Positions 37,566 through 37,930 of a DNA stretch of 64,000 bases are shown in pieces; the stretch's first letter is position 1, and the number at the start of each line of letters is the position of its first letter. The notes under the pieces were generated by a model. The model did no database searches and was not told the DNA's origin. It worked only from the letters and a program-made list of their open reading frames with translations. The stretch is from the NCBI GenBank assembly GCA_012514235.1, contig JAAZAR010000159.1, forward strand, positions 1,065 through 65,064. The letters are read 5' to 3'. The position numbers and the translations under genes are program-made. The DNA is from Actinomycetota bacterium (lineage in GTDB: Bacteria > Actinomycetota > Thermoleophilia > UBA2241).

Positions 37566-37648
37566 ATCGGCGGGTCCCGGTCTTCGCTCACGTCGGCGCT
37601 CGAACGTCTCCGCGTCGACGGTACTGGGCTGGTGAGGTGCGCAGTGCT

Positions 37649-37657
37649 GTGATACAG
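37649..37657 (+). promoter_or_regulatory. candidate extended -10 (TGaTACAGT) for the trpB2 leader
   Basis: It ends 10 nt before the leader-ORF ATG at 37668. Confidence 0.3.
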
Positions 37658-37667
37658 TCCCGCGCAT

Positions 37668-37778
37668 CATGACGGCCTTTGACGACAGTCACCTCCGGCA
37701 GTCCTCGCGGCGGATCGGCGCGCCCGCGCTTTCCGTCAGCGATGCAGCCGACTGGCGTCTCTGGGCCTGGCGCGCGTA
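37668..37778 (+). CDS. candidate Trp-rich leader peptide (36 aa: MTAFDDSHLRQSSRRIGAPALSVSDAADWRLWAWRA)
   Basis: Three in-frame TGG codons at 37752, 37761 and 37767. The stop TAG is embedded in the terminator hairpin. The ORF lies upstream of trpB2. Confidence 0.45.
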
Positions 37779-37793
37779 GCGCGCCCTTCTTTC
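37768..37793 (+). terminator. attenuator-type intrinsic terminator in the trpB2 leader
   Basis: GGCGCGC-gta-GCGCGCC followed by CTTCTTTCG. An upstream GGCGCGCC (37716-37723) can pair with either arm. Confidence 0.5.
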
Positions 37794-37930
37794 GACACCC
37801 GCGTGGGCCAGGCCCACACCCCCGACCGCACTCGCACTGCCGTCCCGTCCCTTCAGGCGGCGCCAGGAGCGGTGCATCCACACCCCAGCATCACACGTCA
37901 ACCGTGCGTTTCCACGAGAGGAGGTAGGTC

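Follow-up and report, generated by a model that had tools for sequence, protein, structure and literature searches.

In Escherichia coli, the tnaC-tnaA operon is subject to Rho-dependent attenuation controlled by a stalled ribosome, and TnaC senses free tryptophan (Trp) through the nascent chain, with a constant spacing to the stop codon, and induces a catabolic gene. Among Actinobacteria, attenuators of the trp operons and of trpS have been predicted or studied in Corynebacterium and Streptomyces (Seliverstov et al. 2005, PMC1262725), and one of them precedes 'trpB2A' of C. diphtheriae, in which a second trpB, whether or not of the TrpB2 type, adjoins trpA (PMC1262725). In mycobacteria, attenuators have been described that consist of leaderless poly-cysteine small open reading frames (sORFs), the Cys-codon tract of which pairs with the Shine-Dalgarno (SD) sequence of the next gene, as proven by compensatory mutants (Canestrari et al., bioRxiv 10.1101/834739). 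No paper on leader-peptide control of a TrpB2-type gene in Actinobacteria was found in the literature that we searched. Here we describe a leader in front of an orphan trpB2 gene in the window, by which we mean the whole 64,000-nt stretch of DNA that was analysed (contig JAAZAR010000159.1, positions 1,065 to 65,064 of the forward strand). It comes from the metagenome-assembled genome (MAG) of an uncultured member of the Thermoleophilia (Actinomycetota) that is 78% complete and has a GC content of 70.6%. From sequence comparison, we lean towards reading the 365-nt gap 5' of trpB2 as a leader-peptide sensor of tryptophan supply that controls this gene, and we are reasonably confident that the element is a regulatory leader sensing Trp-tRNA.

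The layout of the locus recalls that of the classical trp attenuators, such as E. coli trpL. A short open reading frame (ORF) on the same strand carries two to three late Trp codons upstream of a Trp-forming gene, and these codons lie in or beside the 5' arm of a GC hairpin, here called H1. The placement of a stop codon between the two arms is likewise seen with segments 1 and 2 of trpL.

Taken alone, such an ORF is weak evidence, since frames ending in Trp codons are common at 70.6% GC: the source genome holds 364 short frames that end W.W or WW, so a lone ORF of this kind is statistically unremarkable. Conservation in about 65 related genomes shows that the leader element is real. The leader module occurs in about 65 species belonging to 8 genera of one Thermoleophilia family. 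A class-wide sample of 401 genomes contained the exact motif TGGNNNTGGCGCGCNTAGCGC in 56, all of them members of this one family (4 genera), with one copy per genome except for two genomes that have two copies on separate contigs. Other families of the class gave zero matches among the 401 genomes, and the reversed control gave 5 matches. Variant leaders were recognised in 4 further genera, in family members that have trpB2 and lack the exact motif. Each motif copy for which the flanks were read lies approximately 130-170 nt upstream of a trpB2 ortholog, and the genus members without trpB2 (G004, G009, G012 and G022) are also without the motif. In all 18 genus relatives with upstream sequence, the ORF runs from a conserved ATG to a conserved TAG and ends R-R-W-[A/L]-W-R-A, an ending found likewise in about 50 named MAG species. 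The leader was not found with the trpB2 orthologs of other Thermoleophilia families, which have 58-65% identity, or with those of distant bacteria and archaea. The stretch from the last hairpin to the SD is highly variable, with many indels across species. Such variable stretches between conserved blocks show that the species have diverged enough for the blocks to be regarded as being under selection.

The start of the ORF is equally well defined. All leaders examined keep a TGnTAnnnT box and a spacing of 10 nt from this box to the ATG, and have no SD. A CA conserved at positions -4/-3 relative to the leader ATG implies a transcription start about 3 nt before the ATG and thus a near-leaderless mRNA. 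The ORF is in frame in 51 of 52 leaders, with lengths of 14, 15, 18, 21-25, 36 and 39-41 codons; the many independent indels are all multiples of three, which argues for translation, and we infer that the leader ORF is translated. Outside the Trp codons, the leader peptide varies freely and without third-position periodicity, as would be expected of a sensor ORF. Its N-terminal M-T-T-H-D is fairly conserved inside the genus, and comparison of the leader peptides with Pfam and NCBIfam gave no match at E values up to 10.

Near the end of the ORF, two Trp codons are found in 38 leaders, three in 25 and one in a single leader. The three in the window are numbered W1 to W3. At the W1 position (codon -8), CGG (Arg) is present in 29 leaders and TGG in 20, about 60% of the relatives having Arg there. 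W2 and W3 are invariant in 51 of 51 genus-level leaders, and the distance between them differs in other genera. In every leader, the first GG of H1 belongs to the last Trp codon. The U of W3 has no pairing partner and is nevertheless the same throughout the 8 genera, although H1 would be kept equally by CGG, AGG or GGG. The ORF ends with WRA, WRAPRA, WRASRAH or WRISL, and the stop codon (UAG, UGA or UAA) follows 3-7 codons past the last Trp. A UAG inside the H1 loop is found in four genera and is invariant in the genus of the window; in the window itself, the TAG at 37777-37779 spans the H1 loop and the first base of the 3' arm. Elsewhere the stop lies 3' of the H1 stem, with UGA either immediately after it (WRAPRA) or one codon on (WRASRAH), and in a variant from genus g1 (G043, WRISL) a UAA is placed within an enlarged H1 loop. 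One genome of genus g19 (G142; L130 and L131) carries trpB2 twice (identity to the window protein 75% and 73%), and the leaders of the two copies are different variants: one ends W-F-L-R-W-R-A-S-R-A-H-stop, and the other has a single Trp codon fused to H1.

The H1 stem, GGCGCGC-NNN-GCGCGCC, is invariant, and its loop is GUA, CUA, UUA, CCC, CUU, CUC or 13 nt long. A second hairpin, H2, has the form GCGGGC-NNN-GCCCGC and is conserved in most genera; at its pair 74:86, 41 sequences have CG and 8 have UA, and at pair 76:84, 50 have GC and one has AU. A third hairpin, H3 (GACCRC...GYGGUC), covaries and lies within the spacer in most species of the genus. For H2 and H3 together, 27 cells were changed on both sides of a pair, compared with 8.0 ± 2.5 in shuffles. 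The H1 stem, a GACA element and several single-stranded C-tracts are kept as sequence, beyond what structure accounts for. A longer lower stem around H1 that RNAalifold proposed (GUC:GAC, GG:YY) was rejected; it is without covariation, is broken in 6-7 sequences and is missing from the W-R-S-W-L-W clade. An Rfam search of 37600-37930 returned no match even at E values up to 10, T-box included, and a T-box riboswitch or other Rfam family was rejected on these grounds.

The features in the window are collected in Table 1. An earlier note on this DNA had proposed that an orphan trpB2 is preceded by a leader ORF that contains Trp codons and starts nearly leaderless, and had named conservation in relatives as a check. 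All of the features it described are present, with every coordinate 1 too low (a shift of +1), including the ORF at 37669-37779 and the TGG codons at 37753, 37762 and 37768, and TrpB2 models matched the downstream protein. The 36-aa product of 37669-37779, MTAFDDSHLRQSSRRIGAPALSVSDAADWRLWAWRA, is identical to the peptide it gave. A near-leaderless start is implied by the conserved box and spacing, and the reading frame and Trp codons are kept family-wide through many indels. Its placement of the stop inside the hairpin holds for the window and does not extend to the several genera in which the stop lies just past the 3' arm.

Table 1. Positions of the leader, its RNA elements and trpB2 in the window
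Feature	Position	Strand	Remark
Extended -10 box TGATACAGT (TGnTAnnnT)	37650..37658	+	Ends 10 nt 5' of the leader ATG, no SD between
Leader ORF (upstream ORF, uORF), 36 codons + TAG	37669..37779	+	ATG 37669-37671; end W-R-L-W-A-W-R-A-stop
Upstream GGCGCGCC	37717-37724	+	Antiterminator proposed in the earlier note
Trp codon W1 (TGG)	37753..37755	+	Position variable among relatives
Trp codon W2 (TGG)	37762..37764	+	Invariant, 51/51 genus-level leaders
Trp codon W3 (TGG)	37768..37770	+	Its GG forms the first two bases of the H1 5' arm
Hairpin H1, GGCGCGC-GUA-GCGCGCC	37769..37785	+	Free energy -13.7 kcal/mol
Tail after H1, CTTCTTTCG	37786-37794	+	From sequence
Pyrimidine linker CUUCUUUC, then near-invariant GACA	37786..37797	+	T-enriched, U-tract not conserved
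Untranslated spacer, strongly C-rich and G-poor	37786..37915	+	C 46%, G 24%
Hairpin H2, GUGGGC-CAG-GCCCAC	37803..37817	+	In most genera, with compensatory changes
trpB2 SD region CGAGAGGAGG	37915..37924	+	Predicted mostly paired
trpB2, TrpB-like pyridoxal phosphate enzyme, TrpB2 type, 454 aa	37931..39295	+	Typed by profile scores

In the mechanism that we propose, the extended -10 promoter would start transcription a few bases before the SD-less AUG, so the short ORF would be read in leaderless mode. With the last Trp codon fused to the 5' arm of the invariant H1, a ribosome awaiting Trp-tRNA at this codon would hold the arm in its mRNA channel and keep H1 open, while a ribosome that does not wait would end at the stop in or just past H1, depart and allow H1 to refold. 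The state of H1 would thereby report the supply of Trp-tRNA. The output may be premature transcription termination in the C-rich spacer, Rho-dependent and possibly aided by a pause that H1 stabilises. A ribosome stalled beside the linker would relieve this termination, and TrpB2, which converts indole and serine to Trp, would be made on Trp shortage.

The proposed output draws on the spacer and on the source genome as a whole. The spacer is 110-160 nt long and has, across species, 44% C and 25% G, a composition reached by only 0.03% of the windows of the source genome. A C>G skew of 0.15-0.44 is found in all genera, though the sequence diverges, and the spacer is a candidate Rho loading (Rho utilization, rut) region. 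Rho is encoded, with two Rho_RNA_bind matches of 115 and 91 bits (C10:11069-11284 and C22:1665-1889). Genome-wide, at least 5 T in the next 8 bases were found after 18 of 4478 perfect 7-bp GC hairpins, which is the background rate; canonical terminators made of a hairpin and a U-tract are essentially absent from the source genome. Together with the two Rho_RNA_bind matches, this suggests that termination in this genome is mostly Rho-dependent or independent of U-tracts. Based on the conserved C>G skew and spacer length, the presence of Rho and the scarcity of canonical terminators, termination by Rho or pausing appears favoured over a classical terminator or SD masking. Supposing that the leader does sense Trp-tRNA, we regard a Rho or pause output as a tentative proposal; that H1 acts as a weak intrinsic terminator seems unlikely, and SD masking seems improbable. 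The remaining odds would go to other routes, for example stabilisation of the mRNA by the stalled ribosome. The model in full, a starvation-sensing Rho-dependent attenuator on a near-leaderless mRNA in which the waiting ribosome keeps H1 open and so suppresses a pause or Rho loading, is speculative at this stage. The direction of the Trp response and the role of Rho are inferences.

Several observations weigh against the sensing model or parts of it. H1 offers no covariation, since its stem never varies, and selection on the sequence could have a different cause. With W3 in the A site, the ribosome would reach only about 3 nt past the stop and leave the C-rich linker uncovered, which sits poorly with an exclusion of Rho. 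Several simple models predict the opposite direction, in which a freed 3' arm and linker would lead to more Rho loading or more SD masking in starvation. Neither RNAalifold nor the constrained folds revealed a conserved alternative (antiterminator) pairing. A switch in SD exposure was rejected. When 52 leaders were folded by partition function, with the bases under a ribosome at W2, W3 or the stop kept unpaired, no consistent change emerged: the mean unpaired probability of the SD stayed at about 0.3 (free 0.29, W2 0.26, W3 0.25, stop 0.32). The main trpEGDCFBA operon of the genus is without such a leader. In a 1.8-Mb reduced genome of the same genus (G042; L071/L124), the promoter, ATG and uORF start are kept (MTIIDVRSRRCARPAARRREPRGT followed by a stop), and the Trp codons and H1 are lost upstream of trpB2; this looks like a natural loss-of-sensor variant. 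In L101:970-1203, the conserved ATG and the W-A-W-R-A end are in different frames, the sole such case in 52, owing to a leader frameshift or to misassembly.

Of the other explanations, a classical ribosome-mediated attenuator survives best, although we consider it unlikely. H1 and its T-rich tail would then form an intrinsic terminator, and a stalled ribosome would occlude the 5' arm or permit an antiterminator to form. H1 is strong at -13.7 kcal/mol, and the tail in the window, with 5 T in 8 bases, passes a terminator scan and belongs to just 18 such sites in the genome. Tails with at least 3 T are found in 75% of the genus leaders versus 14% in the background. The window tail also has TTCTTT, a NusG-type motif; at motifs of this type, NusG aids weak terminators in some Gram-positive bacteria. 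However, the U-tract is not kept. The post-H1 tail has 1-5 T in 8 bases within the genus (median 3), with 1-2 T in 13 of 52 leaders, and in other genera it reads UGAUCACC, CACUGACG or UGACUCUC, without a U-tract. The terminator tail described in the earlier note is thus present in the window as a T-rich tail, while the U-tract that would define it is not conserved. The antiterminator proposed there, GGCGCGCC (37717-37724), is not supported: it lies in a lineage-specific insert of the 36-41 codon forms only, is absent from most species, has a sequence specific to the window and is unused in the constrained folds of the window, and no conserved alternative pairing takes its place. Pairing of the H1 3' arm with the 5' flank of H2 as a 2:3 antiterminator was also rejected, being limited to 4-5 GC pairs and never the predicted fold. 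Moreover, a ribosome at W2, at W3 or at the stop would in each case cover H1, so that stalled and unstalled ribosomes would differ little as the polymerase passes. With neither a conserved antiterminator nor a conserved U-tract, a classical terminator/antiterminator attenuator is not demonstrated.

A translational attenuator in the style of the mycobacterial poly-Cys leaders or of ermC appears improbable. The position of the ribosome would set which C-rich segment pairs with the trpB2 SD, the candidate partners being the post-H1 linker, UCCCGUCCCC and an ACCUCCU inside the uORF. The SD is indeed predicted to be mostly paired (unpaired probability of about 0.3), and in the window the linker CCUUCUUUCG (37785-37794) pairs over 10 bp with the SD region CGAGAGGAGG in the minimum-free-energy (MFE) fold. 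The best SD partner lies 2-8 nt past the stop in about 25 of 56 species, and the putative leaderless start and the sensor codons at the 3' end match the proven mycobacterial system (bioRxiv 10.1101/834739). On the other hand, different species have different partner segments, the SD region varies too little for covariation, and SD exposure did not change consistently under the ribosome constraints. Being G-rich, the Trp tract has the H1 3' arm as its partner and cannot form the duplex with the SD that the Cys tract forms, and the simplest version of such a switch gives repression in starvation. Two related pairings or couplings were rejected. Several MFE folds join the 5' end (AUGAC) to the trpB2 start (GUCAU); this pairing comprises only 5 bp and is uncompensated when codon 2 changes. 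In the window, the +1 frame is open from 37679 to a TAG at 37925-37927 (82 codons), inside the SD region and 4 nt before the trpB2 ATG, which would allow hungry-codon +1 frameshifting to read through or couple to trpB2; this frame is open in 42 of the 52 species and interrupted in 10, the nearest relative (L041) among them, and is probably a by-product of GC-rich, stop-poor sequence.

It is no more probable that Trp is not sensed at all and that the conserved block is a protein-binding site, a structured RNA or a peptide with a function of its own, with the TGG codons as a by-product. This would suit the conservation of the H1 stem, GACA and the single-stranded C-tracts as sequence and the fairly conserved M-T-T-H-D N-terminus in the genus, and the problem of the direction of the response would vanish. 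However, a pure RNA element would not need a frame kept over at least 10 length classes or an ATG at a fixed distance from the promoter, and the last Trp codon keeps its unpaired U in all 8 genera. A functional peptide is difficult to reconcile with a product that is otherwise poorly conserved, 14-41 aa long and without a family match, and the element is strictly tied to a Trp-forming gene. Finally, a TnaC-like arrest peptide, in which nascent W-x-W-R-A would sense free Trp and a stop-stalled ribosome would block Rho so that Trp induces trpB2, is very improbable: the short Trp ORF, long C-rich spacer and presence of Rho do resemble the E. coli tna leader and UAG is invariant in the genus, but the Trp-to-stop distance and stop identity vary across genera, the R-A codons are accounted for by the H1 stem, it is hard to see why Trp should induce an enzyme that makes it, and the genus has no tryptophanase, only tyrosine phenol-lyase.

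The protein encoded downstream of the leader exceeds the cut-offs of two TrpB2 models, with 723 bits for NF009057 (cut-off 366) and 642 bits for TIGR01415 (cut-off 519), and stays under that of the canonical TrpB model TIGR00263 (139 bits, cut-off 392). Since the next gene is convergent, trpB2 is monocistronic; its upstream neighbour encodes a REC-EAL protein. In one relative (L110:1030-1203), the usual SD of trpB2 has been lost in a deletion of about 60 nt, and an upstream conserved GGAG element (ACGGAG), which normally precedes the SD by about 70 nt, stands at SD distance from the trpB2 ATG.

The regions upstream of trpE in genus relatives (L038:10157-10510 minus, L039:5460-5598 and L040:9383-9600 minus) have no Trp-codon leader. 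Their 5' untranslated region (UTR) measures about 60 nt after a TTGACA...TACCGT promoter and contains a small conserved hairpin, CYUGCCGGRACGGCRRG, with apparent compensatory changes, which may be a different regulatory element. The source genome also has a second stand-alone trpB, at C66:11646-12887 (L031), which is canonical (TIGR00263, 534 bits) and adjoins ilvD, ilvBN and a SnoaL-like gene, with no trpA beside it. In this 78%-complete MAG, no trpA match was found and the sole chorismate-binding match was PabB-like (C89); the trp operon therefore probably sits in the unassembled part. In-house production of indole by tryptophanase was rejected, as the TnaA-like protein of the genus was typed as tyrosine phenol-lyase (TIGR02618, 794 bits, cut-off 721). 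This gene is present in about 10 of 26 genomes of the genus (for example, L136:530-1996 minus, from G002:C1).

What stand-alone TrpB2 enzymes do in the cell is still debated. A Trp-codon sensor found at trpB2 only, and absent from trpEGDCFBA, would be a regulatory sign that TrpB2 answers to Trp-tRNA supply, which would fit indole salvage as a cheap first reply to starvation. If the leader proves to be a Rho-dependent starvation attenuator, it would provide direct regulatory evidence that bacterial TrpB2 is an indole-salvage enzyme induced by Trp starvation, and its mechanism would be distinct from those of E. coli trp, which uses an intrinsic terminator, and tna, which uses an arrest peptide sensing free Trp. 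Leader-peptide control would also be extended to the Thermoleophilia, an uncultured and poorly studied actinobacterial class. The design, with a putative near-leaderless start, a sensor codon welded to H1 and a spacer resembling a Rho loading site, could serve as a tractable model for attenuation without U-tract terminators in high-GC bacteria. Both the ORF and the RNA are absent from Rfam, Pfam and NCBIfam, which leaves about 65 genomes without this annotation.

In comparison with the classical trp attenuators, the thermoleophilian leader differs in several respects. It has no match to Trp_leader (Rfam RF00513), Pfam Leader_Trp or the NCBIfam leader peptides, and it is without a conserved antiterminator or a conserved U-tract. 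Its start would be near-leaderless, whereas theirs is SD-led, and a C-rich spacer of 110-160 nt follows the ORF. It precedes an orphan TrpB2-type gene, and the trpEGDCFBA operon of its own genus has no such leader. Likenesses are also found in the mycobacterial poly-Cys sORFs, which are actinobacterial first-cistron sensor ORFs with the sensor codons at the 3' end and no obvious intrinsic terminator, which have the leaderless type of start predicted here, and for which stalling is likewise proposed to remodel a local RNA duplex. Unlike the Cys tract, the Trp tract has as its partner a hairpin arm that lies 140 nt before the SD. Lastly, although the Trp-to-stop distance varies here and the target gene makes Trp, the leader shares with the E. 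coli tna leader a short Trp-containing ORF, a long C-rich spacer from the stop onward, the lack of a conserved terminator and the presence of Rho, and in both a stalled ribosome would adjoin the putative rut region.

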